The notes under the pieces are model-generated. The model was not told where the DNA came from. It worked only from the letters and a program-made list of their open reading frames with translations, and searched no databases. A program made the position numbers and the translations under genes. Source: a virus (lineage: Duplodnaviria > Caudoviricetes). From it: a DNA stretch of 53,983 bases. The stretch lies in IMG/VR virus record IMGVR_UViG_3300027985_001102, positions 1-53,983 of that record. The stretch is one strand, 5' to 3'. Positions 2,986-34,368 of this stretch are shown here, one piece after another. Position 1 is the stretch's first letter. Each line of letters starts with the position of its first letter.

Positions 2986-3993
2986 TCAGGTGGTCACCTG
3001 GACCACGGGGATGCAGGCGTACCCAGCGCCCGCGGTGAATGCCGAGGTGATTCGGTCGAATTGAATCTCCGACCCCTCGACCAAGAGCAATGCTTGGAAG
3101 CCTACGTTGTCGTTCAACTCTCCACCGAGCGTGCCAGCAACATCACCAGTCACGAGGGTGGCAGCGACATCACCAGATGCGCCGCCGAGCAAGTCACCTC
3201 CGGTCTCGTATCCGGTGATGTTCGTGGACAGGCCAATCGCACTGGCAGTGCCTCCGGTGAATCCCGTCTCGACCTCCCAGTACGGGAAGCCAGCGAGCCG
3301 CAGCGCGAACCCTGCTGGGATGGTCTCGATCGCCTCGCCATCCGTGTTGGCGTAGGAGATCGGAATCTTCATGATGAATGCCTTGTCAGCGCGCACCCAC
3401 CTACCCGTGCCAGCGGCAGGGACTTGCACGAGCTCATCAGCCGTATCCTCCGCTGCGGTACCATCTGCGTCGAACACCCAGTGCGAGTAATCGGACTGGA
3501 CAACGACCTCCATGCCCTCGTATCGATTGGCCGCTGCAATGGCCTTGAGGGCGGTTCTGGTGGCCACGGTAGACGCTGCTACGTAGGCCTTTCCACCGAT
3601 CTCAAGCTCGACTTCAACCTTGTCTCCCACGACGCCATGGGTCTTGATCGTTCCAAGAACATTCTCGAAGTTGGCAGCGGATGCGGCAGAGATAGCGACG
3701 GCCCGCGAGGTTGCGTCAGCCGTCACCTTCTGACCAGGTGTCAGCGTCTCACCAGCGAAAACCCAAGCCCTACCGTCGCACTGGTAGCTCTGGGTCATTC
3801 CGTTGGCAATAGTCTCAACCGAGACGCCGCAAATCGAATCTGTGGCAGCAGTGGCGAGCTCGATGCCATCAATGTTCGTGCCGTCATCCTTGAGGATGTA
3901 GCCAGCAGCGATATCAGAACCAGAGCCGTTGTATCCGTTTCGATCTAGGCTAGGGAATGTCTGTGTGCGTGGTTGCGTGACGTAGTTGGCCAT
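2986..3993 (-). CDS. Capsid decoration/cement protein (DUF2190-like N-terminus) with extra C-terminal domains
   Basis: AGETLTPGQKVTADATSRAV motif; lies between scaffold and capsid genes. Confidence 0.65.
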   Translation of the reverse strand: MANYVTQPRTQTFPSLDRNGYNGSGSDIAAGYILKDDGTNIDGIELATAATDSICGVSVETIANGMTQSYQCDGRAWVFAGETLTPGQKVTADATSRAVAISAASAANFENVLGTIKTHGVVGDKVEVELEIGGKAYVAASTVATRTALKAIAAANRYEGMEVVVQSDYSHWVFDADGTAAEDTADELVQVPAAGTGRWVRADKAFIMKIPISYANTDGEAIETIPAGFALRLAGFPYWEVETGFTGGTASAIGLSTNITGYETGGDLLGGASGDVAATLVTGDVAGTLGGELNDNVGFQALLLVEGSEIQFDRITSAFTAGAGYACIPVVQVTT

Positions 3994-8432: not shown

Positions 8433-8600
8433 TCACTTCTCTTTCGGTTTGATCCACCCACGAGCTTCGAATTCGCGTCGGGCTTCGTTCAGTCGAATCC
8501 TCAAACCGTCTTGTGTCAACTCAGTGGACAGCCGTTTGCGGATTTCTACACGAAGTTCGGACTTCAACTTTTCTAACGCCTCAGCCACCTTTTCAGCCAT
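8433..8600 (-). CDS. Small helical hypothetical protein (55 aa, MAEKVAEALEKLK...)
   Basis: Starts at the TGATG overlap with the terL stop; GGAGG RBS. Confidence 0.55.
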   Translation of the reverse strand: MAEKVAEALEKLKSELRVEIRKRLSTELTQDGLRIRLNEARREFEARGWIKPKEK

Positions 8601-10006
8601 CAAAAACCTCCAAGGCTTCGATTCTGTCTTGGGCCCGAAACCTTCACGTCGATCGTCTGCCCCCCGCCTGCCACAAGGGCATCAAAGGCGGCAGCCAGAG
8701 CGTCGACCTGGTCATCGTGCAGGTCCTTGACCCCTGTGAATCCAAGCACTTCCTTCAACAATTCTGCAACCCATGGCGCATCCCGTGGAACGAATATCTT
8801 GCCACGATTCCACGCTGCTGCAACTGGTTGTGCGCGGATGAGCTTGTCCACTGTTGCTGGAATCGCGCGTAACATCCTGGCCCCTTCGTTTCGAATGTGC
8901 TGAGCCACGCCCTTTTCGGGCCCGGCCATGTACCACCACATGGGCGATCCAGGCCATGCCACCGACATTCCATTGAGAATCTTGCTGAAAGCTGGGGAAT
9001 CTATCTGGACTCGGTGAACCAGCAGCACGTAGTACTGGGTGTCGACGATCCTTCCGGTGGTGTCCCGAATGTCGTAGGCAGCAAGAGCAAGCCCTACAGA
9101 ATAGTCAGATTTCTTGTTCTCGGAATATGCACAGTCCACACCGATCGCAACCCGGTACCCGCCTGGAGGCAGCTCGTCGTACAGATGAGCGTCACGGAAT
9201 ACTTTCGAGCCCTTAGGGCGTGGATTGCCCTGAAACAACGATTCCCAATCGTAGTCAGACTTTGCCCGTTTCGCTTCCCACCACGCAGCGGGACGCATCG
9301 ACTCCCACAGGTAGGTGCCGTCGAGAGCCAGTGCCGGAAGGTTGATAAGCTTCATCGGGGCATCCCCATCGGGATCCGACTGGCGGCCGATCAAGTCGTC
9401 TTCATGCCAACGATGGTGGTTGATGAAAGTGGACGAACCAGGATGAAGTCGTCCTTGGATCGAGGTGAACCATGAGTGGACTGCTTCCCGTCGGACGGGG
9501 GATTCCGCCTCGGCCCTGGACTTGTGTGGATCATCAATGACGATCCACCCGTCGATTCCCTCACCAGTGAGCGGACCACCAATCCCCGCCGCGATCACGC
9601 TCCCACCTTCCACCGTCTTCCAGTACCCGGAGGATTGGCACAAGGGATCGATGTGGGCCCTAGCACGCTTGGCATACTCGAGAATCGTGCGCGACTTCCG
9701 TTCAGCAATCGTCGCTGAATAGGAGATGTACGCGTTCTTCTTCGTGGGGTTCCGCGCTATGAAACGAGCGAAAGCCGAGAACAACGCCTCGGACTTTCCG
9801 ACCTGTGGAGGAGCTGAGAAGCAGGCCTCAACGGGTTCGTGGAACGCTCGTTCCACCTCATCAAGAATGGGGGAGAGATGATGGGGTCGCTCGTAGCTGG
9901 GGTTGATGTGTTGGACAAAATTGACCAACGGCATGCCGTCGATTTCGGCAAGCCTTCGTCGCAGTTCGAGCTCAGCTTCAGCTCTTGTCGCCAGATCCAC
10001 GAGCAA
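8600..10006 (-). CDS. terL: Terminase large subunit
   Basis: Walker A PPQVGKS, Walker B IVIDDP, HRWHEDDL, C-terminal nuclease HDDQVDA. Confidence 0.95.
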   Translation of the reverse strand: MLVDLATRAEAELELRRRLAEIDGMPLVNFVQHINPSYERPHHLSPILDEVERAFHEPVEACFSAPPQVGKSEALFSAFARFIARNPTKKNAYISYSATIAERKSRTILEYAKRARAHIDPLCQSSGYWKTVEGGSVIAAGIGGPLTGEGIDGWIVIDDPHKSRAEAESPVRREAVHSWFTSIQGRLHPGSSTFINHHRWHEDDLIGRQSDPDGDAPMKLINLPALALDGTYLWESMRPAAWWEAKRAKSDYDWESLFQGNPRPKGSKVFRDAHLYDELPPGGYRVAIGVDCAYSENKKSDYSVGLALAAYDIRDTTGRIVDTQYYVLLVHRVQIDSPAFSKILNGMSVAWPGSPMWWYMAGPEKGVAQHIRNEGARMLRAIPATVDKLIRAQPVAAAWNRGKIFVPRDAPWVAELLKEVLGFTGVKDLHDDQVDALAAAFDALVAGGGQTIDVKVSGPRQNRSLGGF

Positions 10007-10391
10007 TTGCCTCGAGCTCTTCGATAGTCAACGCCGCGAAGTCTATCTTTACTGGTCCTCCGCCAGCGCCAGTGTGCTCTACCGACATTCTTGTCTTGCC
10101 TCCGTGTCGCTCTGGGAATCGGCGTTCAAGCAGCCACTTAGCATGTTCTGGGCCATAACGCTTATCCGATGTCGCTCGCATCACAATCATGGAGAGCTCC
10201 GCTTCAAATTGCGCCTGTGCCTTCTCTATAGATTCAGTAAACGCCTTCCGTTTTGGGTCACTGAGCCACATATAGTAAGATGATCTCGATATTCCCACCA
10301 GGGCACAAGCAGTGGAAGCTGGCACTCCACTGGCGATTAGGGCGCATATGTTTTCTTGCATCTTAGGTGAGAGACGAGTTTTCCTTGCCAC
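9978..10391 (-). CDS. terS: Terminase small subunit
   Basis: HTH (ACALVGISRSSYYMW), AKWLLERRFPE and VEHTGAGGGPV motifs; directly upstream of terL. Confidence 0.85.
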   Translation of the reverse strand: MARKTRLSPKMQENICALIASGVPASTACALVGISRSSYYMWLSDPKRKAFTESIEKAQAQFEAELSMIVMRATSDKRYGPEHAKWLLERRFPERHGGKTRMSVEHTGAGGGPVKIDFAALTIEELEAIARGSGDKS

Positions 10392-10410: not shown

Positions 10411-10426
10411 CGGCCCACGAATTGCA
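10411..10426 (+). promoter_or_regulatory. Sigma54 (-24/-12) promoter for HTH paralog 1
   Basis: CGGCCCACGAATTGCA = GG-N10-GC with TTGCA; predicted +1 about 10437, ATG at 10439. Confidence 0.7.
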
Positions 10427-10438
10427 CCAGGATAGATC

Positions 10439-10714
10439 ATGAAGCGACAACCACGCGAAGGCTCTCTAGCCGTGGCTTTGGGGGCATGCTTGCGTGCGCC
10501 CGATGAACGTCTGGTGCAAGCAGCCATGCTGGTGATTGCGGAGGCGCTGGAGGGATCTGATGGGGTAGCCACCCGTGCTGCCGCGCGCCTAGGCGTACCG
10601 GAGCGCACGTTCCGAAAATGGTTGGCGCAAAGCCCCTCCTTGCAAGCGATGCGCAGCAAGATCCAGCAAAAACGCGACGGTAAGAACATATCCCACCGTG
10701 TGGTACCTCAATAA
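10439..10714 (+). CDS. Stand-alone Fis-type HTH protein, paralog 1
   Basis: EALEGSDGVATRAAARLGVPERTFRKWL resembles the HTH_8 domain of enhancer-binding proteins; paralog at 28712. Confidence 0.8.
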   Translation: MKRQPREGSLAVALGACLRAPDERLVQAAMLVIAEALEGSDGVATRAAARLGVPERTFRKWLAQSPSLQAMRSKIQQKRDGKNISHRVVPQ

Positions 10715-10853
10715 AACCAATACGTTACTGTATAGCTGTGCATGTTTTGCGGAACCCGTGACACCCATGTCATTGGTGTTACAGTGGGATTAGATGCCAT
10801 GAGCGAACTTACGAGAGGTTACACGACATGTCTAGCTAGGCATGGGTCATGCA
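10715..10853 (+). promoter_or_regulatory. Sigma54 promoter region 1b: IHF-like boxes, palindromes at 10759-10772 and 10829-10842, -24/-12 element at 10838-10853
   Basis: AACCAATACGTTA (one mismatch to WATCAANNNNTTR); TGACA-CCCA-TGTCA; TTACGAGAGGTTAC; AGGCATGGGTCATGCA. Confidence 0.7.
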
Positions 10854-10865
10854 GCTTCATGTGGC

Positions 10866-11171
10866 ATGACCATAACCATCACCATTACGAATGAAATCCG
10901 CAACCTGGCTGAATCCCTCACTGGAGCAAGTCTCGCGCGTCGTGATGGGCTTGTCTGGCATCACTCTGCCACTGTCCGTTTGGGAACACGATGCCCACTG
11001 GTTGTCGATCTGAGATGCTGTGTGGGGGTCAAGAAATGGGCTACAAATGTTGGGAAGGCGCTCTCCAACAAGGGGATGCGTGTCCATGTTGGCAAGTGCG
11101 TTCGGACCTACAGGGACCATTCAACCATGCCAGATGGATGGTGTTGCCTCGTTTCGATTCTAGGGCTCTGA
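10866..11171 (+). CDS. Hypothetical Cys-rich basic protein (101 aa)
   Basis: ATG falls about 2 nt after the predicted sigma54 +1; first gene of a two-gene operon. Confidence 0.55.
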   Translation: MTITITITNEIRNLAESLTGASLARRDGLVWHHSATVRLGTRCPLVVDLRCCVGVKKWATNVGKALSNKGMRVHVGKCVRTYRDHSTMPDGWCCLVSILGL

Positions 11172-11182
11172 AAGGATGGGCA

Positions 11183-11587
11183 ATGAAAACCGTAAAAAAC
11201 GAAACCGAAGACCGGCCTGCTGTACTCGTGTCCACGTGCCTCATGGGTGTAGCATGCCGCTACCACGGTCGACCATGCGCCACGCATAGCCGAATCCGAG
11301 GCATGCTTGACGCTGGCCGCGTGCGACTTGTGCCGGTATGCCCGGAGGTGTCGGGTGGGTTGCCTGTGCCTCGTCCGCCTACCCGCCCCAAGGATGGTCG
11401 GCTCTGGTGCGGCGGGGAGGACGTCACCGAGGCGTTTGAGGCGGGGGCGCAGGAAGCGCTTCGTGTTGCGGTGGAGTGCGGAGCGAAGAAAGCCTACCTG
11501 GTACGAGGGTCCCCTTCTTGTGACCGTGATAAGGGTGTAGCAGCAAGGCTGCTACAGGCGCATGGCATCAAAGTCATCCGGATTTAG
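11183..11587 (+). CDS. DUF523 / TudS-like (thiouracil desulfidase family) Fe-S protein
   Basis: VLVSTCLMGVACRYHG, CPEVSGGLPVPRPP, DVTEAFEAGA, SPSC motifs; AAAGGA RBS. Confidence 0.88.
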   Translation: MKTVKNETEDRPAVLVSTCLMGVACRYHGRPCATHSRIRGMLDAGRVRLVPVCPEVSGGLPVPRPPTRPKDGRLWCGGEDVTEAFEAGAQEALRVAVECGAKKAYLVRGSPSCDRDKGVAARLLQAHGIKVIRI

Positions 11588-12845
11588 CCAACTTCTTCTG
11601 ACCACCCCGCACCAGATCATCGAATGAACGTGGCCCACTTCCGCCGTCTGGTTGCATAGGCCCGAGACGTTTTTCCCACCGGCGGATGTCATCAGCCAGC
11701 CCTGGGTAGTTGTGTTGCAAAGCAGCAGCCTGCAAGCCACATTGGCCGGGGCAGCACCAGCACGCCGTTCGAATGAAGCCGCGCTTGTATCCATCCCATA
11801 GCGGTACTCCACTGGATTCAATGATCTGGTCTTCTGTCGCCTTCTTGGTCGCAAAGCATGGCGCAAAGTGCTGGTACTTGTCACTCTTGGACCCAAGCGA
11901 CTGCAAAGCGCTTCGCTCTGTTTTTCGACTACCCAAATTGGCTTCTTCTGCTCGTGAACCAGTAAGCACCACCGTCGTTCCTTCGGGATGCTGTCGTACA
12001 TATGTACCGAAGGTGCGGTGGATCATGTCGTTGGCGCATGGCCGATAGATGATACTGGGCCATCGCCCCTCTTGCGCCAACCATGCCCACCAATCCCGCT
12101 GTGGCTTGAGTACTACACATTCCGCATGAAGGAATACTGCCACGTCGTACACATGCGCTGAAATGCCAGGGAATTCCACACCTGGATCCACGAATGCCAA
12201 CTGAAAACGTTTACCAGTCGCGTGTTTCGATGCCCAAAGCGCGGCGGCAGTGGAGTCTTTTCCACCGGAAAACTGGACGATTACGTCGGTTGCATTCTCC
12301 CATGTAGGCTCCAACCAAGCTGGCATGTCGAAGAAACCATCTGCGTCTTTCCACTCGTGCACATGTTGTCGTGGGAATGTCTGCCTCTGTTTTCGTATCT
12401 GCTCGAGCAACTTCGCGGTGGCGCTTGCATCGTGTCCAGTCCCACGCAAGTCTCCCCTTTGTGCCTGTATCTCTGCTAGTAGCTCATGCAATCGCTCCGG
12501 ATCGGGCTTGGCTCTGGCTGCTGTGGCATTGTCGGCCACCATAATGCGAATGGCAGTGTCGTCGTCAACGTCTACGTAATCGACATCGATTTCTGTCAAT
12601 CCCTCAGCCTTCGCAGCCATGTAGCGGTGGTTTCCAACCAGCACATGCCCAGAGCTCTGCTGCACCACGATCGACCCGTAGAAGCCGTTCTCTACCACTG
12701 ATTCCCTTACCGAATCCACATCTCCTTTGTTGTAGTTTCGCGGGTGAAGACTTATCAAGTCCAAGCCTACTCTCGCATGGCTCACATTCACGACACTGGC
12801 CTTCGCGTGTTGTGTGTCCAGTTTGTTCGGTTTATGCCCTACCAT
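11574..12845 (-). CDS. ParB/Srx-like N-terminal domain fused to PAPS-reductase-family (DndC/SspD-like PP-loop) domain
   Basis: HPRNYN, VLVGNHRYMAA, ADN (ParB-like); FSGGKDS, DPGVEFP, GSRAEE, Y.RGF.RTACWCCP (PAPS reductase). Confidence 0.88.
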   Translation of the reverse strand: MVGHKPNKLDTQHAKASVVNVSHARVGLDLISLHPRNYNKGDVDSVRESVVENGFYGSIVVQQSSGHVLVGNHRYMAAKAEGLTEIDVDYVDVDDDTAIRIMVADNATAARAKPDPERLHELLAEIQAQRGDLRGTGHDASATAKLLEQIRKQRQTFPRQHVHEWKDADGFFDMPAWLEPTWENATDVIVQFSGGKDSTAAALWASKHATGKRFQLAFVDPGVEFPGISAHVYDVAVFLHAECVVLKPQRDWWAWLAQEGRWPSIIYRPCANDMIHRTFGTYVRQHPEGTTVVLTGSRAEEANLGSRKTERSALQSLGSKSDKYQHFAPCFATKKATEDQIIESSGVPLWDGYKRGFIRTACWCCPGQCGLQAAALQHNYPGLADDIRRWEKRLGPMQPDGGSGPRSFDDLVRGGQKKLAKSG

Positions 12846-21563: not shown

Positions 21564-22178
21564 CTATTCTTCGTCGAACACGAGCAACCCGCCACGGGAC
21601 GGTTCGTCAGTGATTCGGACACGCTTCCCATGTGGGACCTCGCCTGTCCTGACAAACCGGCGAAGCGTATCCGTATCTGGCCATACGATTTCACCACGTG
21701 CGACGGTTCGGGAAGGGGTGGCGAGAGCTGTGCCACTCACGACACCGATCTCGCCCAGTCGAAGCAGTGCAACCGATTCGGTCACGCCGACGTATTTCGC
21801 GATGGCCCTTGGGTTGTTTCCATGGACACGGAACGCTGCCTGAACAACGCATCGGGGGGCACACAAGATGGCGCCGAGCAAGTCGCACATAGCCTCTAGG
21901 TTTGCGCCAACATATCCAATCCGCTGATAGTAGAAGTGACCGAGCTCATGGCCGCACACCCACCGCTGACGTGTCGGGGACAAGCGGGAAGATACAGCCA
22001 CACGGATGACTCTGTTGATGCTGGATAGCTGTCCTTGAGATCCGAACATCGGGACGACAAGTGGTGGGTACCCTGTGAGGCCTATGCACAGTGCACGAAT
22101 CGAGTGCGGTTCGCTGGGGTCGAGACCAGCCATTTGGATGAGGGCACGAGCGTCACCTTCCACTTCAGCGAGGTTCAC
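21564..22178 (-). CDS. ImmA/IrrE-family metallopeptidase (anti-repressor protease)
   Basis: RQRWVCGHELGH (HExxH), E..CD..GA.LCAP; TATAGT-N6-GTG. Confidence 0.88.
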   Translation of the reverse strand: MNLAEVEGDARALIQMAGLDPSEPHSIRALCIGLTGYPPLVVPMFGSQGQLSSINRVIRVAVSSRLSPTRQRWVCGHELGHFYYQRIGYVGANLEAMCDLLGAILCAPRCVVQAAFRVHGNNPRAIAKYVGVTESVALLRLGEIGVVSGTALATPSRTVARGEIVWPDTDTLRRFVRTGEVPHGKRVRITDEPSRGGLLVFDEE

Positions 22179-22230
22179 CACGGAACTATACGGTCCTTTT
22201 ATGAGGTGGTAAAAAATCTTTCGATAGCGG

Positions 22231-22873: not shown

Positions 22874-23032
22874 ATGACCCCCGAAGCAATGGTCGCCAAG
22901 TACCTGGCAGCCTGCCGAATGCGCAGGGATCTGGCATCTATTCTTGGAGATGAGGAATGGGAGATGGACGCCCGTGACGCTGAGATGGACGCGGTACTGG
23001 CACTACAGCTTATAGCCGCTGGGCTTTGGTAG
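22874..23032 (+). CDS. Small hypothetical protein
   Basis: GGAGG RBS. Confidence 0.45.
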   Translation: MTPEAMVAKYLAACRMRRDLASILGDEEWEMDARDAEMDAVLALQLIAAGLW

Positions 23033-27171: not shown

Positions 27172-27435
27172 GTGTACAAAACAATTGAGGAAGCAGCCAA
27201 GGAGCTGAGGATGTCCCCCGACGCGCTTCGGCGTCGATGCGCTCGAGCGGCGCGCAAGATCGGGAGAGACATCACCGCGCAGCTGGGAGACGGCGTAGTT
27301 GCTGTGAAATTTGGCAGGAGTTGGCGTGTCAGATTCGGGTCGGGTAACCTCTCAGGAGCATGTCCGACCGCTCAGAGGAGATCCCATGAGCGTTCGCAAA
27401 ACAAAGAAGAACGGCAAGCCCATCCTGCTCATTGA
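27172..27435 (+). CDS. xis: Excisionase-like HTH protein
   Basis: YKTIEEAAKELRMSPDALRR...KFGRSWRV; directly upstream of the integrase. Confidence 0.75.
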   Translation: MYKTIEEAAKELRMSPDALRRRCARAARKIGRDITAQLGDGVVAVKFGRSWRVRFGSGNLSGACPTAQRRSHERSQNKEERQAHPAH

Positions 27436-28468
27436 CTTTCGATACACAGACCCAACCGGAACACCGAGACGGTTTCGCAAGGTGGCCGACGTGCAGACCA
27501 TGGCCGCTGCCAAGGCAGAGGAGCAACGTTTGCGGATGCACGCCGCCGAGACAGGTGAGCCATATTCGGTTAGTGGGAGCAAGTGTCCAACGTTCGCCGA
27601 ATTCATCGCTGGACAGTGGCAGAATTGGACCCGTACACACCACAAACCCAGCACGCGCGAGAGGTACCAAGCGCTACTCGATCAAGGCGTGCTGTCCGCA
27701 TTTGGAGCCTATCAACTGGACGAGATAGACGCTGCTGCTGTAACCGAATACGCGGCCTATCTGACAGCCGACAACGTTCAGGCATGGCCCCATGTTTCTT
27801 TCGTCTCTTCTGTTCTTCGTGCCGCTGTAGCTCTCGGCGTGCTCGCAGAGATGCCTCGATTACCACCATCGCGAAGGAAGAAACGCAAGCTGCCTAGCTG
27901 CCCAGACCACGACGAGATCGTTACGATGCTCTCATTCGCTCGATCATGGGTGAGGCTTGCGATTGCGCTTGCTGCCTACGCTGGGTTGCGTTCCGGAGAA
28001 GTACGAGCGCTCGAAGTGGCTGACATTGACCTGAAGCATGGAATCATTCTTGTGCGACGATCGCTTAGCGCCGATCAGGTCACGACCACGAAGGGCGACG
28101 AGGAGCGTGTGGTCCCAATAGCGCCGGAGCTCGACATACTTCTGCGGGCGTCGATCAAGGGGAAGCGTGCCAAGGATCGAATCGTGGTGATGCGCGACGG
28201 ATCGACCCCATCGAGGCAAAAGATCTGGTCGAGGGTGGATCGGCTACAGCAACGCCACGGGCTGCGACACCGATCGTTCCATTCGATCCGACACTTTTTC
28301 TGTACGTCGCTCTTGCAGCGAGGAGCGGACATAGAGCTCGTTCGCACCGTGGCAGGTCACCAGGATATCGAGACGACCTGGCAGTACCTGCACAGCAACA
28401 ACGAGGATGCTCGCGTTGTGATGTCGAGGCCCTATACGGGCCCTGTCCTTGTGTCCGGTTCGAAGTAG
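27386..28468 (+). CDS. int: Tyrosine integrase
   Basis: YAGLRSGE (R), TTKG (K), HSIRH (HxxR), GHQDIETTWQY (H, Y); GAGGAG RBS. Confidence 0.95.
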   Translation: MSVRKTKKNGKPILLIDFRYTDPTGTPRRFRKVADVQTMAAAKAEEQRLRMHAAETGEPYSVSGSKCPTFAEFIAGQWQNWTRTHHKPSTRERYQALLDQGVLSAFGAYQLDEIDAAAVTEYAAYLTADNVQAWPHVSFVSSVLRAAVALGVLAEMPRLPPSRRKKRKLPSCPDHDEIVTMLSFARSWVRLAIALAAYAGLRSGEVRALEVADIDLKHGIILVRRSLSADQVTTTKGDEERVVPIAPELDILLRASIKGKRAKDRIVVMRDGSTPSRQKIWSRVDRLQQRHGLRHRSFHSIRHFFCTSLLQRGADIELVRTVAGHQDIETTWQYLHSNNEDARVVMSRPYTGPVLVSGSK

Positions 28469-28655
28469 CCTACAAAACAAGGCGTATTCGCGTCATCTGT
28501 CGGGGAAGGGGGATTTGAAGTGGAGGATTCAGCACACGCGGTCAGACATGCTGTTTCCAACGAATTCGCCACTTTATCCCACACAACTGAACGGACGCGC
28601 ACGGACGCGACCGGACACTAAAGGGCCCACCGTGGGCCCTACCTGGGCCCTACCC
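28427..28655. other. attP: core at 28499-28519 resembling a tRNA-Pro 3' end, flanked by 11-bp-period arm sites
   Basis: Minus strand TTCAAATCCCCCTTCCCCGAC; (G/A)GGCCC-based repeats at 28427, 28438 and 28623, 28634, 28645. Confidence 0.78.
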
Positions 28656-28684: not shown

Positions 28685-28700
28685 TGGCACGTCTCGTGCG
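28685..28700 (+). promoter_or_regulatory. Sigma54 promoter for HTH paralog 2
   Basis: TGGCACGTCTCGTGCG, near-consensus; predicted +1 about 28711, ATG at 28712. Confidence 0.78.
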
Positions 28701-28711
28701 AAGGATGTGGC

Positions 28712-28993
28712 ATGCCCAAATCCGACGAAATCGCTCGCCGTCTACGCGACCGACGGCAGGCAGGTGAACACGGCTCCCCTTCGGCGCTAGGCGTGGCGCT
28801 GGGCGCGTGTCTCCGGTCCGGTGATAGGCTCCTAGTACTGGCAGCGACGGAGCGGATACAGGAGGCGCTGCGGGGGAGGACGCGCACAGCAGCAGCAGCA
28901 GCGCTGGGGGTGTCGTACCGCTCGCTTGCCCGATGGCTGGCCGACTACCCTGACATAGTTGCGGACGACTATGACTCGGATGTCATAGTGTAG
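28712..28993 (+). CDS. Stand-alone Fis-type HTH protein, paralog 2
   Basis: LGVALGACLRSGDRLLVLAATERIQEALRGRTRTAAAAALGVSYRSLARWLADYP aligns with paralog 1. Confidence 0.8.
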   Translation: MPKSDEIARRLRDRRQAGEHGSPSALGVALGACLRSGDRLLVLAATERIQEALRGRTRTAAAAALGVSYRSLARWLADYPDIVADDYDSDVIV

Positions 28994-29134
28994 CATGTCT
29001 TGGTTTATAGAGTTTATAGCGTGTTCAGCGCTGTTCAGTATGACTCACGTGACAGCGTGAGCGTAGGATTGGATGGGGCTGTGATAGTAATTACGAGCAC
29101 TTACGAACATGACTCGCGTGGCATATCATGTGCA
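28972..29134 (+). promoter_or_regulatory. Sigma54 promoter region 2b: palindromes at 28972, 29041, 29110 (69-bp spacing), IHF-like box at 29091-29104, -24/-12 element at 29119-29134
   Basis: TGACTCGGATGTCA, TGACTCACGTGACA, TGACTCGCGTGGCA; TTACGAGCACTTAC; TGGCATATCATGTGCA. Confidence 0.72.
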
Positions 29135-29181
29135 TTGACTTAGGTCACGCCGCAAGGGGCGGCCCAATTGAAGGAGACACA

Positions 29182-29457
29182 ATGGAAACTACAATCACAA
29201 CAGTCGCAACGTCAGTGGCAATCTGGTGGGACACGCAGGACCCTCAGTCCGAGGGATGGACGTGGCGCGTGTGGTACTCCGCCGGCGATGGGTACTACGA
29301 TTCTGACTCCGGCCAAGTCGACGCCCCCCGTGACGCAGAGCTCGCGGATCTACTCGAGCTGGTAGCAGCAGACACAGTTGTGGATCTTGGTCCGTACGCG
29401 GACGCAGACGCGTACGGACCAAACAGAAACGCTGAAGGGTGGGAAGCGGGCAAGTAG
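29182..29457 (+). CDS. Small acidic hypothetical protein
   Basis: AAGGAG RBS; first gene after the sigma54 promoter. Confidence 0.65.
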   Translation: METTITTVATSVAIWWDTQDPQSEGWTWRVWYSAGDGYYDSDSGQVDAPRDAELADLLELVAADTVVDLGPYADADAYGPNRNAEGWEAGK

Positions 29458-29511
29458 CCACCACGAGCTGAAACACCGGACGGTACCACCGTCCGTGAAA
29501 GGCTGGATAGA

Positions 29512-29748
29512 ATGAACTCTGACATCGAAAACACCAATCTGGAGATCCTAGCAGAAGCTGCAACATACGTTGCGGTTGCTGGCGATCAGATGCCCGTCGA
29601 GATTCGTCTTGACGGGCATACATTCCAGCCTCCTGCGGATCGTAAGGTCCACGTCGTCCAGGGGAACCGTGGGCAACCCCCCACGGAATGGACCGGCCCC
29701 CTACGCCTGTGGCACGACGCCGTCAAGAAGGCGGCGTCAAAACTCTAG
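29512..29748 (+). CDS. Hypothetical protein
   Basis: Tiled ORF in the small-gene operon. Confidence 0.55.
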   Translation: MNSDIENTNLEILAEAATYVAVAGDQMPVEIRLDGHTFQPPADRKVHVVQGNRGQPPTEWTGPLRLWHDAVKKAASKL

Positions 29749-29765
29749 CCAGTGGAAGAGGTACG

Positions 29766-30263
29766 ATGATCGTCCCCGCCGAATTCCGGAGACTGCTTGC
29801 GGGTGCGTACGGAGACGTACGTGCTCGCCTCGAGTGGACCGATGACGGTCGCCTGACCTGGGAGGGTCACGGCACGATGTCGCGAGCTCAGACCGATCGC
29901 TGGATCGCCATGTGGTGGCGATTCGTCGAGCACAAAGGAGAGCTCCGCTATCGCTCCGAGTGCGTCTGCTCCGCGAGGAGAGCGCACGATGGTGAAAGGT
30001 ATTGGCTGCGCGCCTATACCCCCGATGGCTGGCCCCCTATACCTCCCCCTGTGCTGGCATTGCTCGAAGCTCAGCTCACGCATAGGCACTCGCGTGAGTG
30101 GGCAGAGGATACTCTACGGTGGGTCGCACGCGCGGAGGCGGATCCCCAGTGCCAGGAATTGGATCGCCGTAGCAGAGGCCGCGCCTGCGCGCGGTGGGAC
30201 GAGCGCGACGAAGCGCTCGCGGTGCTCGGCACCACGCTGACAGAGAGGCAGGGGGCGCTATGA
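29766..30263 (+). CDS. Hypothetical protein
   Basis: GAGG RBS; ATGA-coupled to next gene. Confidence 0.55.
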   Translation: MIVPAEFRRLLAGAYGDVRARLEWTDDGRLTWEGHGTMSRAQTDRWIAMWWRFVEHKGELRYRSECVCSARRAHDGERYWLRAYTPDGWPPIPPPVLALLEAQLTHRHSREWAEDTLRWVARAEADPQCQELDRRSRGRACARWDERDEALAVLGTTLTERQGAL

Positions 30264-30535
30264 ACATCGATACACTGACCCGCCTATTGCTCTTGGTCCG
30301 GCCTGAAACCTATCGCCGCCACGGCTGGCGCGGCACGTCTGGCGCGTATGTCGGACTGCATGCCATTATGGGGTCTGCATATGACCATAACGGCCTAGCG
30401 GGCTCTGGATCTGTGGAGGTGACCGTCCGCCGGCCTAACGACCCGGAAGGTTGGCACAACCCAGCGTTCGTGGCACCACGGAATTCGCCGGTCTACCGGA
30501 GAATGGTCCGAGAGTGGGAGCGGAGGCATCCCTAG
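30260..30535 (+). CDS. Hypothetical protein
   Basis: ATGA overlap. Confidence 0.55.
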   Translation: MNIDTLTRLLLLVRPETYRRHGWRGTSGAYVGLHAIMGSAYDHNGLAGSGSVEVTVRRPNDPEGWHNPAFVAPRNSPVYRRMVREWERRHP

Positions 30536-30603
30536 GCAGGAAACTGGCTCATTGGTGCCCCGTAGCCCTCGCGGTTCGGGGCTTGAGGCCGTAGGAGACA
30601 AAA

Positions 30604-30834
30604 ATGAAAATGTATACACTCTTGAAAGACCAGGGCCAGGTCGTGGAAGTCAGCTACGGGTATGGAGGCGACGGCACTGCCTACCGTCGTCGCCACGACA
30701 GGTCTGATGGATCGACCACCTGGGAGGTGGGGGATCTCGATTGGGACCTCGAGCCGGAGGGCGTCAGCACAGAGCGTATCCCGTGCGTGATTGAATGGGT
30801 CCCCTGTGATCCTCCAGCGGAGGAGGCGGAATGA
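30604..30834 (+). CDS. Hypothetical protein
   Basis: AGGAG RBS. Confidence 0.6.
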   Translation: MKMYTLLKDQGQVVEVSYGYGGDGTAYRRRHDRSDGSTTWEVGDLDWDLEPEGVSTERIPCVIEWVPCDPPAEEAE

Positions 30835-31115
30835 ACACCCCGTACGAGGTAGTCGTCGCCCCCGGCTGTCACGACAGGCCGATCGCGCCTGTCATCTCGC
30901 GCCATCGCACCCTACGCGGTGCCGTGCGCTCGGCACGCAGGTCTGACCGACTGCAGGTCGAACCCGCTACGAGCTCGGTGTGCCTGTACCGCGCGAAATC
31001 GCGCCAACCGACCCAGCATGGCTACGGCGCCTATGGCGGGCCGGACACGCGGCCGCTGGCCGTGTGCTACGCGGAAGCAGAGGCGGCGGAAGCGGCGTGG
31101 AGGAACGAGCAATGA
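30831..31115 (+). CDS. Hypothetical protein
   Basis: GGAGGAGG RBS; ATGA overlap. Confidence 0.55.
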   Translation: MNTPYEVVVAPGCHDRPIAPVISRHRTLRGAVRSARRSDRLQVEPATSSVCLYRAKSRQPTQHGYGAYGGPDTRPLAVCYAEAEAAEAAWRNEQ

Positions 31116-31642
31116 ACCCCATCGTGAGGCACGAAGACGATCGCCTTAGCGACCTCGCGCCGCTGGTCGACGTAGACATGTTCGGTGCGGTCGCAGCTCA
31201 TATCCTAGGATACGTCGGAGGGTCGCATCGGATGCTATACTGCGTCCGGGGGCGACCCAATAGCGGCATGGTCCGCGTATGTGGATTCCCATTCCGCTAC
31301 GATACGGGAACCCGGGCAGGGGAGGTGGAGATCCGCACCTCAGATGACACAAGATACCCTTGCCGGGCGCTGTTTCGCGACGGCCCCAATCGTTTCGAAG
31401 TAAACGAAGAAGTCCAGGTGAGCGGACTGTGGGATGCGGGACTCGCCGATATGCATGCCGCTGCTATGCGTCAGCGGGAGGCGTGCCATCGCGGCGACAT
31501 TGTGCTCGTCACTCGTCCAGGATGCGGCGACATCTGGACTCCAGCTGGGGATTTGCCACCGTACGTGCGGACGTATGAGGATCACGGATTCGACATTCGA
31601 GTCGCAGCCGATGGGCGACGCTGGACGGAGGGGCCGCAATGA
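31112..31642 (+). CDS. Hypothetical protein
   Basis: GGAGG RBS; ATGA overlap. Confidence 0.55.
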   Translation: MNPIVRHEDDRLSDLAPLVDVDMFGAVAAHILGYVGGSHRMLYCVRGRPNSGMVRVCGFPFRYDTGTRAGEVEIRTSDDTRYPCRALFRDGPNRFEVNEEVQVSGLWDAGLADMHAAAMRQREACHRGDIVLVTRPGCGDIWTPAGDLPPYVRTYEDHGFDIRVAADGRRWTEGPQ

Positions 31643-32124
31643 CCGCGTACGTAAAATGCGCAGTGTGCGGGTGGGCTCAGGAGTCGCGCTATCGGGGCCC
31701 CAGTCCGTGGCCTGATTCAGCGTCAGAGCTTCCGGCGGCGCTGCGCCTCCACGCTGGCATGTACTTTGATGTAGATTGCGGCGGGTGGCACAAGGGGCTC
31801 CCGTGCACGAACCGCATCCACTGGATACGCTGCACGAAGGCGTATTACGATCTGCCGCGCTGGCGAGCGGAGCTCGATCGGCAGATCTGGTACCTGGAGC
31901 AGACCCACGCCATGCTCGAGCGAGCGCGGCAAGGGTTGCGCGAGGCGGGCGAATTCGAGCTTTCGTGTGCGCAGTGGGTCGAGGATATTCATCGCACTCT
32001 GGAGGTGCGGCTGCCTGCCAAGGCGGCGCGCGAGAAAGAAGCGATCGCGCGCTGCAAAGCGCGTATCGCCGAACTGGAGCGAGAGCTCGCCCACACCCCT
32101 GAGGGGGAGAGGATCACATTTTGA
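31639..32124 (+). CDS. Hypothetical zinc-binding coiled-coil protein
   Basis: CAVC...C...C; ATGA overlap. Confidence 0.55.
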   Translation: MTAYVKCAVCGWAQESRYRGPSPWPDSASELPAALRLHAGMYFDVDCGGWHKGLPCTNRIHWIRCTKAYYDLPRWRAELDRQIWYLEQTHAMLERARQGLREAGEFELSCAQWVEDIHRTLEVRLPAKAAREKEAIARCKARIAELERELAHTPEGERITF

Positions 32125-32384
32125 TCTACGACACCCACGCGGCCCACAAGGGCGGCCTGCCGTACGGCCTCATCGAGCGCTCATCGCTGCTGTCTACGCG
32201 AGCGGGTGTGTCGATGGGGGCACCCGATGACGAGATCCGAGCGCTGTCGACATGGCAGCTCCAGCAGCTCCGTCGGGTCGCTCATTGCCACGCCCGTATG
32301 GGCTGGCGAGACAATCAGATTCGTGCTGAACAGGTGCTATCGCTCACGTGGGTGGAGCTGACCCGTAGAGGGGCGTGCCAGTGA
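32121..32384 (+). CDS. Hypothetical protein
   Basis: GAGGA RBS; TTGA overlap. Confidence 0.45.
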   Translation: MIYDTHAAHKGGLPYGLIERSSLLSTRAGVSMGAPDDEIRALSTWQLQQLRRVAHCHARMGWRDNQIRAEQVLSLTWVELTRRGACQ

Positions 32385-32457
32385 AGATAGGAGTTAGCAA
32401 AATGAAACACGATCTATGGCGCGACGATCACTACGAGATCTCGTGGGAGGCCATGCT

Positions 32458-32742
32458 ATGACCGACCATTACGGCCCCTACCGCGTGGGCATTCGCGCGG
32501 GTCTGGACGTGGACGAGAAGTTGGGCATATTTCGCCCAATTGACCTGTACGTGGTGGAAAACCGCTGGGGGAGAGCGGTACAGTTCACTACCACGCGCAA
32601 CCGTCGCGAAGCCGAGGCGTGGTGTGAGAGGCGGAACACCGACCACTCACACCCAGGGTGCGCGGGAGTGTGCATGGGTGAGCCCTCCCCAGATGACCCT
32701 AGCACTGTGACGTGCCCTGACTGTTTGGAATTGCTGCTGTAA
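32458..32742 (+). CDS. Hypothetical protein with C-terminal zinc finger
   Basis: GGAGG RBS; H..C...C...VTCPDC. Confidence 0.55.
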   Translation: MTDHYGPYRVGIRAGLDVDEKLGIFRPIDLYVVENRWGRAVQFTTTRNRREAEAWCERRNTDHSHPGCAGVCMGEPSPDDPSTVTCPDCLELLL

Positions 32743-33353
32743 TGGCGTACGCAAAGGCTACCCTACACAAGGACGGGACGGCCAGCTATGGCGACATCGA
32801 CCACGCAATCACCCTGACACGGGAGCAGCTCGACGCTATCCCGATCCGGGAGGCTCGCCGGATCGCTCTACACCTCGCCAGCCGTGGCGACGAGGTTGCC
32901 CGGGAGTGGATGGATGCGTACCGTGGTCGCGCTCGCAAGTCGGACTGGTACTCGACACCATCCGACCTGCGCAATCGTCGCCACGTGTCGCTTACGTTGA
33001 GCGACGAGGCACGCGCTAGGCTTGCCTCGATCGCAAAGAACAAAGGGACGACAAGGTCCCAAGTAGTGGAGGAGTGGATCATGTCGCAAGCGATTGGGCC
33101 CTGGTACATCACCGACACCGCAGTGAGGCAGTACGCCACTCTGCGAGGCGCGGATAGGGCCGACGCGATCGAAGAGCTTCGCTCGATCGCCAAGGACGCG
33201 GCCGAACGCAAATCGCCTAGGCGCACGGCAGGAGGGCTGCTGTGCTACCGCGTACGCAAGCCGATCGATGTCCAGCTGCTCGTGAGCGACAGCGCGCGCG
33301 ATGAGGGGACGCTGCCACAGCTTGTGGCAGTGGTGGCTGGATTCAGAAAGTGA
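32742..33353 (+). CDS. Ribbon-helix-helix (CopG-like) domain protein with an extra C-terminal domain
   Basis: RHVSLTLSDEARARLASIAKNKGTTRSQVVEEWI. Confidence 0.65.
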   Translation: MAYAKATLHKDGTASYGDIDHAITLTREQLDAIPIREARRIALHLASRGDEVAREWMDAYRGRARKSDWYSTPSDLRNRRHVSLTLSDEARARLASIAKNKGTTRSQVVEEWIMSQAIGPWYITDTAVRQYATLRGADRADAIEELRSIAKDAAERKSPRRTAGGLLCYRVRKPIDVQLLVSDSARDEGTLPQLVAVVAGFRK

Positions 33354-33513
33354 TGGGACCACCAGTTGACACCCCAGCGCGAACAGGTACACTCCACTTG
33401 TTCGCGAACAATTCCTGCCTTCGGGCAGGCCCCATTGACGCAAACACGAACGCGAACACGAACACGAACTACGCAGTCCACTTGGCTGCGTTTTCGTTTT
33501 GTTGGGGGGAGAA

Positions 33514-33735
33514 ATGAACCAGTACCCACAGCAGTACCAGCATCAGCCAACAGCTATGTGGAGGTGTCCATTTTGCGGGTATTATGGGGAGCCGATACAG
33601 GGATCAAGTGTGTCTACTGGTGGTGTGATAGTGGCAATTGTGTTTCTGTTTATGTGCTTCCCGCTGTTCTGGATTGGTCTGCTCATGAAGGACTACCACG
33701 AATTTTGCCCGTCATGTCGAGTACGTCTGGGGTGA
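33514..33735 (+). CDS. LITAF-like zinc-ribbon membrane protein
   Basis: Q/P/Y-rich N-terminus, CPFC, hydrophobic stretch, HEFCPSC; GGGGAG RBS. Confidence 0.7.
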   Translation: MNQYPQQYQHQPTAMWRCPFCGYYGEPIQGSSVSTGGVIVAIVFLFMCFPLFWIGLLMKDYHEFCPSCRVRLG

Positions 33736-34368
33736 CTCACGCGGCAACATCCACATGCGATGAGGCACGAGCTCGCCCACCCGAAGCACGCCAATGATCT
33801 CGCGAGGCCCAAGCCCGTCTGCCAGGTAGACCTTGCCATTCGATCGCACGATTGAGCGCTCAGTTTCGTGGATCGCGCATCGAAAACCACCATCCACAGA
33901 CGTGATTCGGTGCTCGCCAACCTCTACTACGGTGAGAGCGTGCGTGAGCAATCCAGTGCCGATGATGGCGATTTCGCCTGGTATAGGGAGCCTCGACTTG
34001 TGCTCGAATCCTCCCATCACCTGAAGTCGAACCATTGGGTCGACGGGTCTGCGAGGTGGCGACTTGGCGAATGCCCATGCTGCTGGCGTCGAGAGCTCGT
34101 AGTGGTCGAATCCAAAGCACCGAAGTAGACCACCAGCCACGTGAGCGCACCCGTGTTGTTTTTGAGCCATCCCAGCGGCAACAGCGGGGTCATCGTGCGG
34201 GTAGCACAGCTCCAGATATCTCGGCTCGTCGAAGCGAATCCCGACGCACGCACGAGCGATCTGGACCATGGTCGCGCGCTTTTGTTCCGGTGTCCATCCA
34301 GGGTCACCGAGCCATTGGCCTTGCCCTTGCCATCCTGGTGGTGGGGGAGGCCATCCTGGTGCTTTCAC
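33712..34368 (-). CDS. CHAP/NlpC-like cysteine peptidoglycan hydrolase (probable endolysin)
   Basis: HGCAHVA, PGEIAIIG...THALTVVE...SVDGG; end of the late operon. Confidence 0.55.
   Translation of the reverse strand: MKAPGWPPPPPGWQGQGQWLGDPGWTPEQKRATMVQIARACVGIRFDEPRYLELCYPHDDPAVAAGMAQKQHGCAHVAGGLLRCFGFDHYELSTPAAWAFAKSPPRRPVDPMVRLQVMGGFEHKSRLPIPGEIAIIGTGLLTHALTVVEVGEHRITSVDGGFRCAIHETERSIVRSNGKVYLADGLGPREIIGVLRVGELVPHRMWMLPRESPQTYST

Follow-up and report, generated by a model that had tools for sequence, protein, structure and literature searches.

A duplicated phage cassette that joins a stand-alone HTH_8-type protein, a palindrome array and a candidate sigma54-type promoter

Sigma54 promoters stay entirely silent unless an ATP-driven activator acts on them, which makes them attractive switches for phage accessory genes. 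In phage lambda, the gene for a small dimeric helix-turn-helix (HTH) protein, CI or Cro, lies by several dyad operators (OR/OL), one of which overlaps the controlled promoter. The sigma54 consensus, as quoted in PMC12316311, is TGGCAC-N5-TTGCW with the GG and GC doublets 10 nt apart, and the same source describes the Myxococcota as rich in enhancer-binding proteins (EBPs). Without an AAA+ domain, an HTH_8 dimer is unable to remodel the sigma54 closed complex (PMC4641369). Two described cases link phages to this machinery: Htm (Gp204) of Mosigvirus AV110, a phage-borne piece of EBP architecture that is proposed to act on sigma54 transcription (bioRxiv 10.64898/2026.10.06.757011), and the Gifsy-1 prophage genes that influence the host EBP RtcR in Salmonella (PMC9879122). 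Here we describe a cassette present twice in an uncultured temperate phage, the virus record IMGVR_UViG_3300027985_001102 (IMG/VR; Duplodnaviria, Caudoviricetes), of which the whole analysed stretch of 53,983 nt is called the window below. Literature searching, with supplementary files outside its scope, found no phage module that joins sigma54-type promoters with a DNA-binding-only relative of an activator, in agreement with the original prediction, a note made from the sequence alone whose author knew of no such description in phages.

The duplicated cassette is real and conserved, and its HTH family and geometry are solid. In the layout that we propose, a promoter-like motif (P1) is followed by an HTH gene of ~90 aa, an AT-richer spacer with an array of ATGAC-N6-GTCAT palindromes, and a second promoter-like motif (P2) that would lead into accessory genes. 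Copy 2 consists of a sigma54-like P1, TGGCACGTCTCGTGCG (28685-28700, + strand; score 13.5/15), the HTH gene (28712-28993, +; 93 aa) and P2, TGGCATATCATGTGCA (29119-29134, +; score 13; predicted start ~29145). In copy 1, P1, CGGCCCACGAATTGCA (10411-10426, +), has a score of 12.5, which taken alone is chance level, and lies within the 47 bp that separate the divergently oriented small-terminase gene from the HTH gene (10439-10714, +; 91 aa), which is followed by P2, AGGCATGGGTCATGCA (10838-10853, +; score 12.5; predicted start ~10864). All four motifs lie at the places first given for them (28685, 10411, 29119 and 10838). The scores are crude consensus scores with a maximum of 15, cruder than a position weight matrix, and the predicted start (+1) is set 12 nt after the C of the -12 GC.

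Two further cassettes, L001 and L004, make the comparison one of four cassettes from three elements. L001 is a viral/metagenome contig of 4,139 bp (the same locus as L002, L003 and L045), and L004 (= L006) is a 4,587-bp stretch of a 6.7-kb contig binned to a Myxococcota metagenome-assembled genome (MAG). Both follow the same order: the HTH gene, then ATGAC-N6-GTCAT palindromes past its stop codon, two of which are perfect in L004, and then a TGGCAY-N5-RTGCA motif. The L001 HTH gene (2986-3231) has an upstream motif at 2947 (CGGCACGTCTGGTGCA, score 13.5, identical to copy 2 P1 at 13/16 positions) and a downstream motif at 3454 (TGGCACGCACCATGCA, score 14.5/15), and these are the only matches that score at least 13.5 in the 4,139 bp, both on the gene strand. 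Similarly, the L004 HTH gene (1897-2123) lies between motifs at 1867 (score 12.5) and 2366 (TGGCACATAGAGTGCA, score 14), the only two matches of at least 12.5 in 4,587 bp, again on the gene strand. Shuffled versions of the window yield 0.73 scores of at least 14 per 108 kb, and by hand estimate ~0.003 (L001) and ~0.002 (L004) would be expected in the spacers. The homologous HTH genes of L001 and L004 keep the flanking motifs, in matching order and at matching distances, as had been foreseen. Because L001 and L004 independently repeat this order and these distances, the significance of the cassette comes from them and not from window statistics. When viral contigs were searched for the pattern TGTTCAG-N0/1-TATGAC-N6-GTCA, 11 loci were obtained, with an HTH homolog on the L001 contig (L045) alone; the other 10 were rejected as unrelated coding matches in lower-GC (41-55%) phages.

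The palindromes, first described as 14 bp long, are better given as ATGAC-N6-GTCAT. A repeat finder placed three repeats in copy 2 at 28970, 29039 and 29108, spaced by 69 and 69 bp. These are S1, ATGACTCGGATGTCAT (28971-28986, +; 11/12 consensus positions), S2, ATGACTCACGTGACAG (29040-29055, +; 9/12 consensus positions), and the proximal site S3, ATGACTCGCGTGGCAT (29109-29124, +), whose right half doubles as the P2 -24 element. Copy 1 has two sites with a 70-bp offset between their starts: GTGACACCCATGTCAT (10758-10773, +; 11/12 consensus positions) and the proximal ATGTCTAGCTAGGCAT (10828-10843, +), which overlaps the P2 -24 element and whose position was adjusted by hand by 1 nt. The 69-bp spacing of the copy 2 sites had been noted at the outset and stands, with the copy 1 pair at 70 bp. 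Relative to the predicted P2 start, the palindrome centres lie at -28.5, -97.5 and -166.5 in copy 2 (S3, S2 and S1, respectively), -28.5 and -98.5 in copy 1, -28.5, -98.5, -153.5 and -244.5 in L001, and -28.5, -99.5, -166.5 and -257.5 in L004. A palindrome that overlaps the -24 GG of P2 in one register, first noted at the two window loci, is therefore present in 4/4 cassettes with its centre at -28.5, and the next site is found at -97.5 to -99.5 in 4/4. The proximal site is a hybrid dyad with the -24 element as its right half, as in GTGCC-N6-GGCAC (L001) and ATGCC-N6-GGCAC (L004). Half-sites are identical across the four cassettes. As the sequence between the sites has diverged, the fixed spacing is the strongest sign of function.

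We next consider how specific the palindromes are to the cassettes. The window has two palindromes that match ATGACA-N4-TGTCAT at 11/12 positions or better, each of them within a cassette, whereas shuffles average 0.07 (1.4e-6 per position). The looser pattern TGAC-N6-GTCA with at most one mismatch is not enriched in the window (20 matches vs 28.4 expected). The strict palindrome occurs at six sites in the MAG of L004, two of them on the cassette contig, while the reversed-pattern control gave 0. The other four MAG sites are surrounded by sequence of 64-70% GC and have no sigma54 motif next to them; the sole sigma54-like matches in these stretches are two weak ones (12.5) that lie 330-380 bp from one site. 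A host regulon that uses the palindrome is disfavoured because the strict site is rare in the MAG and has no neighbouring sigma54 motif there outside the cassette contig; judging by this distribution, the binder is more likely the protein encoded beside the sites. A fourth palindrome-like site in the window, TGACTCACGCGGCA (33733-33746), has 12/14 positions in common with S2 and likewise with S3, and overlaps the stop codon of the last open reading frame (ORF) of the copy 2 operon. We rejected it because no -12 element stands at the right distance and because chance alone would give about one match of this kind (hand estimate).

The spacers that hold these arrays are indeed AT-richer, as first noted: their GC content is 48-50% vs 58% for the genome, and they are among its most AT-rich 150-nt stretches. 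Both window spacers align over a ~70-bp block that ends in GGCAT-N6-TGCA. The TTACGAG-N3-TTAC box that had been described as part of the module is present in both, as TTACGAGCACTTAC in copy 2 (29091-29104, +), which has it in common with copy 1 alone, and as TTACGAGAGGTTAC in copy 1 (10809-10822, +). The window holds these two matches only, against 0.22 expected, and 0/100 shuffles reach two. The box is missing from L001 and L004, and since it is not kept there, it is probably a trace of the common ancestry of both window copies. A weaker common element, GGATTRG, is found at positions -77 to -79 relative to the P2 start, at 29066 (copy 2), 10787 (copy 1) and 2315 of L004; the equivalent in L001 reads GCATTGC. 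Such a motif may be a site for an additional factor. Integration host factor (IHF) had been invoked between enhancer and promoter, and this part of the prediction found no backing: the core consensus WATCAANNNNTTR, which is that of Escherichia coli, has no match with at most one mismatch in any of the four spacers.

The proteins encoded by the two cassettes are paralogs, as was proposed at the outset, with 52% identity (32/62 residues, E 1e-14). Copy 1 by itself matches HTH_8 (PF02954) at 24.1 bits, above the Pfam gathering score of 22. A profile search of 1.84 billion representatives gave 746 proteins at E≤1e-3 and 44 at E≤1e-10, where many long multi-stretch matches resemble alanine-rich noise. 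For the family alignment (A3, n = 28), we combined the two window proteins and the L001 protein with 25 matches that were single-stretch proteins of 70-100 aa or had an N-terminal extension; the locus search was based on a narrower alignment, A4. HTH_8 is matched by 22 of the 28 family members (best E 1.1e-11), with the signature GGN.T.AA..LG...RTL. The family-specific ending is R.L.RW, and the 91-93 aa have no room taken by a receiver or AAA+ domain. Against Protein Data Bank (PDB) sequences, the family profile found the HTH_8 consensus peptide, the ZraR C-terminus, NtrC-family DNA-binding domains and the PrrA DNA-binding domain.

Structure prediction is less clear-cut. The AlphaFold2 model of the copy 2 protein (predicted local distance difference test score, pLDDT, 86) is all helical by DSSP, with an extra N-terminal helix at residues 2-14 and without the N-terminal β-hairpin arm of Fis. 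In an exhaustive structure alignment, the top match was the DNA-binding domain of Aquifex aeolicus NtrC1 (Z 5.8, root mean square deviation 2.1, 44 residues), with generic helical repeats tied at Z 5-5.7. NtrX, NtrC4-DNA and Pseudomonas aeruginosa Fis (Z 4.6) were also among the fold matches, amid these tied repeats, and a Foldseek search against the PDB returned nothing at E≤0.001. The predicted homodimer has an interaction prediction score from aligned errors (ipSAE) of 0.68 vs 0.01 for the best of three controls, and clears a mark that was reached by 20/30 solved one-chain pairs and 1/23 single chains. Contacts are at least 97% the same across three runs, partner pLDDT is at least 75, and the interface is formed by residues 25-48, the family-invariant ALGACLRSGD helix. 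This pass may reflect likeness to the dimers of Fis and of NtrC DNA-binding domains, which have already been solved. Together, these results support the identity of both proteins as stand-alone Fis/NtrC-type (HTH_8) DNA-binding-only proteins of a rare family, and the Fis-type HTH that had been proposed for them holds, with HTH_8 in 22/28 members and the NtrC1 domain as top-ranked, if tied, fold match.

The rarity of the family is visible in several collections. No PHROG was found for it, the names in 10 clusters that were looked up were only 'hypothetical protein', and 50,697 cultured-phage records contained no homolog. Queries with copy 1 and the metagenomic proteins P0018, P0006 and P0015 found no relatives among viral contigs, and copy 1 is 54% identical to the C-terminal part of P0018, a protein encoded on 14 contigs of up to 13,997 bp. 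A protein atlas gave leads only, as small HTH_8 clusters with scores of at most 0.90. In a profile search of 401 Myxococcota genomes, 217 had matches, with the cassette contig at 97 bits. The other matches listed reach at most 49 bits and are mostly the HTH core of long open frames; two of these weak matches that were inspected are one EBP and one receiver-HTH_8 protein (L008).

Whether P1 and P2 are sigma54 promoters is the central question for the function of the cassette. All eight motifs in the four cassettes have the GG-N10-GC doublet spacing and a same-strand gene downstream, with scores of 12.5-14.5/15. The flanks are asymmetric in a sigma54-like manner in 8/8, with G before the left GC, T before the right GC, and A or G after it. 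We therefore regard P2 as a good sigma54-type promoter candidate, placed in the same register in 4/4 cassettes, and on motif evidence it is likely to be a working sigma54 promoter. The P1 motif is likewise conserved in 4/4 cassettes, with the HTH ATG at predicted +2, +3, +5 and +14. The HTH genes had been called leaderless, which is doubtful given Shine-Dalgarno-like motifs (AAGGA, CAGGA, GGAGG or AGGAG) 5-7 nt before the ATG in 4/4. P1 is doubtful as a promoter because such a motif lies upstream of the predicted start in 3/4 and because P1 has no ATGAC-type palindrome upstream. Either the HTH mRNAs are nearly leaderless with incidental purine runs, or they start further upstream and the P1 motif is something else. 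Copy 2 P1 could be an operator, as it contains the perfect dyad GCACG-TCT-CGTGC, or it could be bound by unactivated holoenzyme. A reading of P1 as an RNA hairpin was rejected, the stem not being kept in copy 1 or L004. The probability that P1 is a working sigma54 promoter seems to us a little under one half.

Several observations weigh against a sigma54 reading of the cassette, or against parts of it. The genome-wide scan tells two ways: the window alone is not enriched (13 scores of at least 13 vs 8.1 expected, and 27 of at least 12.5 vs 20.2), and what stands is the recurrence in the relatives L001 and L004 at matching register. Similarly, GGCAY-N5-KTGCW has 2 matches in the window vs 1.15 expected, and three of the four window motifs score just 12.5-13. 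The dyad GCAYR-N3-YRTGC occurs three times in the window, all in the cassettes, with 1.6 expected genome-wide, so this motif core could itself be an operator. At P1, the Shine-Dalgarno-like motif falls between the -12 GC and the predicted sigma54 start in 3/4 cassettes, and none of the four has an ATGAC-type palindrome upstream. The copy 2 protein alone scores 14 bits for HTH_8, below the cut-off of 22, and its best match is HTH_28 (28.4 bits). HTH_8 is also found in regulators of sigma70 promoters, such as the receiver-HTH_8 protein in L008 and the PrrA DNA-binding domain in the PDB. The ~69-bp spacing of the sites is not a whole number of helical turns, and four cassettes from three elements are a small number. 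As for the host, a search with the large terminase (TerL) of the window did not find it in the Myxococcota MAG that carries L004, and a search with the portal protein gave distant matches only, in 6/301 Myxococcota genomes. A look for RNA runs that contain the region listed none.

Much of this would suit a conventional regulator that does without sigma54, in which GGCA...TGCA forms dyad operators or part of a non-canonical sigma70-family promoter and the HTH protein controls its own and the downstream genes as a plain Cro/CI-like or Mor/C-like repressor or activator. The motif cores are palindromic (GCACG-TCT-CGTGC in copy 2 P1 and, as a perfect dyad in copy 1 P2, GCATG-GGT-CATGC) and confined to the cassettes; the Shine-Dalgarno-like motifs past P1 imply a start further upstream in 3/4 cassettes; HTH_8 regulators of sigma70 promoters exist; and the genome-wide sigma54 scan was without enrichment. 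A sigma70-like GTGACA-16-TACAGT also overlaps the copy 1 palindrome, but it is not conserved in the other cassettes, and about one match was obtained per region scanned: the sigma70-type scan gave 1 match vs 0.6 expected in the copy 1 region and 1 vs 0.2 in the copy 2 region, none of them a convincing promoter placed to drive either gene set. Operators alone would leave unexplained the flank asymmetry in 8/8 motifs with exact GG-N10-GC and the P2 scores of 14.5 and 14 of 15 in L001 and L004, and would demand that one protein recognise two different dyads. We consider this explanation rather unlikely.

The reading that we favour, with a probability of about one half, is that of a self-contained mobile cassette in which an HTH dimer on an operator array gates the sigma54-type P2 for accessory genes, with a host activator needed. 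The HTH protein is predicted to dimerise through the ALGACLRSGD helix, and the dimer would sit on the palindromes with centres at about -29, -98 and -166. Lacking an AAA+ domain, it cannot open the sigma54 complex, which makes negative gating of P2 most likely, through occlusion of the -24 element and occupation or looping of the enhancer-position sites. Occlusion is favoured because the proximal site is at -28.5. Activation of P2 would come from a host enhancer-binding ATPase, which is required since the HTH_8 dimer has no AAA+ domain and the phage no EBP. Sigma54_activat (PF00158) is absent from the phage at E≤1, where the positive control was detected in 14/14 genomes, in keeping with the earlier statement that the phage has no GAFTGA-type activator; a sigma54 gene was not found in the window either. 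The MAG to which the L004 contig is binned encodes rpoN (214 bits) and is not established as the host of the window phage; GC contents differ, with 68% in L004 vs 58% in the window. The two window paralogs would probably cross-regulate both cassettes, with heterodimers likely, because both cassettes use the same half-sites and the paralogs have almost the same dimer helix. We infer that the phage plugs its cargo into a host EBP, with repression by the HTH protein; no site for a host EBP was found. In this respect, the original interpretation keeps its HTH_8-type protein, its lack of a phage EBP and its P2 as a candidate promoter, and finds no support for leaderless genes, IHF sites, the position of attP (the phage attachment site) or a TTACGAG box beyond this phage.

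The HTH protein might instead act positively, by tethering a host AAA+ activator, for example one without its own DNA-binding domain, or by Fis/IHF-like bending that helps a host EBP reach P2. In 4/4 cassettes there is a site near -98, a classical enhancer position, and the fold resembles EBP DNA-binding domains in a phage that has no EBP. A docking surface could be offered by the N-terminal helix at residues 2-14, or by the domain that is fused to the HTH in relatives and encoded separately at 32742. A phage EBP-like ATPase without a DNA-binding domain is known in Htm (bioRxiv 10.64898/2026.10.06.757011). Set against this are the -24-overlapping site in 4/4 cassettes, which is a repressor position, the lack of an identified partner, and the lack of a precedent in the literature searching. 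Positive action appears unlikely to us, and repressive gating remains the preferred reading.

The neighbours of the two copies suggest yet another role, in DNA transactions. Copy 2 follows the tyrosine integrase gene (27311-28468, +) and could be a Fis/Xis-like integrase accessory at attP, and copy 1, 47 bp from the start of the Sf6-type small-terminase gene (9978-10391, -), could be a packaging-site factor. Fis assists lambda excision, and this role is a point in favour. Near the L001 and L004 cassettes, however, neither integrase nor terminase was found among the neighbouring ORFs tested (five of L001 and three of L004), the fixed distances run to the downstream promoter-like motif and not to the integrase or small-terminase gene, and the protein model is without the Fis-type N-terminal β-hairpin. 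A DNA-transaction role is thus very improbable, and gating of P2 is still to be preferred.

The location of copy 2 beside attP, as first described, found no support: attP was not located, and the window has no tRNA and no Rfam match. The 243-bp gap between the integrase gene and HTH copy 2 contains, at 28590-28655, a tandem repeat of ACGGACGCG(C/A) that overlaps with a dyad rich in GGGCCC, GGGCCCACCGTGGGCCCTACCTGGGCCCT. This region, which lacks a T-run and any tRNA or Rfam match, may represent attP or a terminator. Near copy 1, a dyad CAGTGGA-N9-TCCACTG around TGGCAC is found at 10310-10332, in the 5' end of the small-terminase gene and ~80-100 bp upstream of copy 1 P1. The small-terminase gene adjoins a 468-aa ORF that matches annotated large terminases (8600-10006, -), whose matches among cultured phages are all below 30% identity. 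As a virus record, the window is complete, bears direct terminal repeats and has a GC content of 58%; among its products are a Baseplate J protein and a Mu-like portal in fusion with a Mu F-like domain. An ImmA/IrrE-like metallopeptidase (21564-22181, -; Peptidase_M78, E 1.3e-8) lies beside small unassigned ORFs, near the divergent gap at 22937/23146 between leftward replication genes and rightward recombination genes. The immunity switch of the phage is probably in the region of this peptidase, apart from both cassettes.

The genes downstream of P2 differ between the two copies. After copy 2 P2 there are ~12 small same-strand ORFs (29182-33735, +), which start at 29182, 29512, 29688, 30194, 30604, 30831, 30980, 31639, 32121, 32416, 32742 and 33499. 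Pfam gave no match above threshold for the 10 of these that were scanned, with one sub-threshold RecJ_C match in ORF 32742, and PHROG gave none for the eight scanned. The last large gene of the operon encodes 203 aa (32742-33353, +). The initial ~60 residues of this protein have homologs in the metagenomic proteins P0015 (E 3e-11) and P0018 (E 0.002), where they form an N-terminal extension joined to the HTH domain. This gene-fusion link is a hint that the N-terminal domain of ORF 32742 may work with the regulator. After copy 1 P2 come a 101-aa ORF (10866-11171, +), with its ATG at predicted +3, and a 2-thiouracil-desulfurase-like gene (11183-11587, +; PF04463, 87.3 bits). The latter is approached convergently by a ParB_N-PAPS-reductase fusion (11574-12845, -), and the two may form a sulfur-related nucleic-acid modification pair. 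A ParB_N-like gene is also present near the cassette on the L001 contig. In L001, ~220 nt of purine-rich sequence (3480-3701) separate the P2-like motif from the next plausible gene (3702) and include a hairpin with an 8-bp stem, GACTCAGG...CCTGAGTC. This stretch may be a long leader or a small RNA.

A broader possibility is that phages of sigma54-rich bacteria carry portable enhancer cassettes, in which a default-silent sigma54 promoter is paired with a DNA-binding-only copy of an EBP that decides whether the host ATPase fires. Such a protein might cover the enhancer and the -24 element as a decoy repressor; alternatively, it might serve in trans as the DNA-binding half that redirects an AAA+ activator of the host. 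This generalisation is tentative, and we hold it to be on the unlikely side. If true, sigma54 and a split enhancer-binding protein would here underlie a phage regulatory circuit for the first time. Should the favoured reading of the cassette be right, it would be a novel means of linking phage cargo to the signalling of the host, and a compact portable regulatory part with fixed geometry and a 10-kDa protein.

Among known systems, the cassette proteins resemble the DNA-binding domains of NtrC-type EBPs (NtrC1, NtrC4 and ZraR) in their HTH_8 signature, best fold match to NtrC1 and predicted dimer on dyad sites, and the cassettes share with these systems a site near -98 upstream of a GG-N10-GC promoter. 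Unlike NtrC-type EBPs, the phage protein has only 91-93 aa, lacks receiver and AAA+ domains, has its own dimer helix and R.L.RW ending, and is encoded by the phage beside its own sites, which are ~69 bp apart rather than adjacent and include an extra one that overlaps the -24 element. Fis is likewise a small stand-alone HTH_8 protein of ~90-100 aa, comparable in its dimeric form to that predicted here and a fold match in its P. aeruginosa version (Z 4.6). It differs in its N-terminal β-hairpin arm, which the all-helical phage model lacks, in its degenerate sites, where those of the cassettes are well-defined palindromes, and in being a core host gene rather than a rare phage-borne family. Htm too is a phage-encoded part of EBP architecture but represents the opposite half, an AAA+ protein without GAFTGA and without an HTH from a lytic T4-like coliphage, with no cognate promoter cassette described in the excerpt of the preprint cited here. 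The Gifsy-1 case also ties prophage genes to sigma54/EBP-dependent transcription, but both the sigma54 promoter and the EBP are those of the host, and the cited excerpt describes neither a phage sigma54 promoter nor a DNA-binding-only protein.

The CI/Cro arrays of lambda are alike in having an HTH gene beside multiple dyads, one of them on the promoter, and in site spacing that suggests cooperative binding or looping. In contrast to lambda, the cassettes use HTH_8 and not HTH_3, have a sigma54-type target promoter, and are duplicated and located away from the likely immunity region around the ImmA-like peptidase (21564-22181). We see the cassette as sigma54 enhancer architecture combined with the repressor-operator logic of phages, with sigma54 use probable at P2 and uncertain at P1, and with a repressor gate that we infer from the position of its operators.

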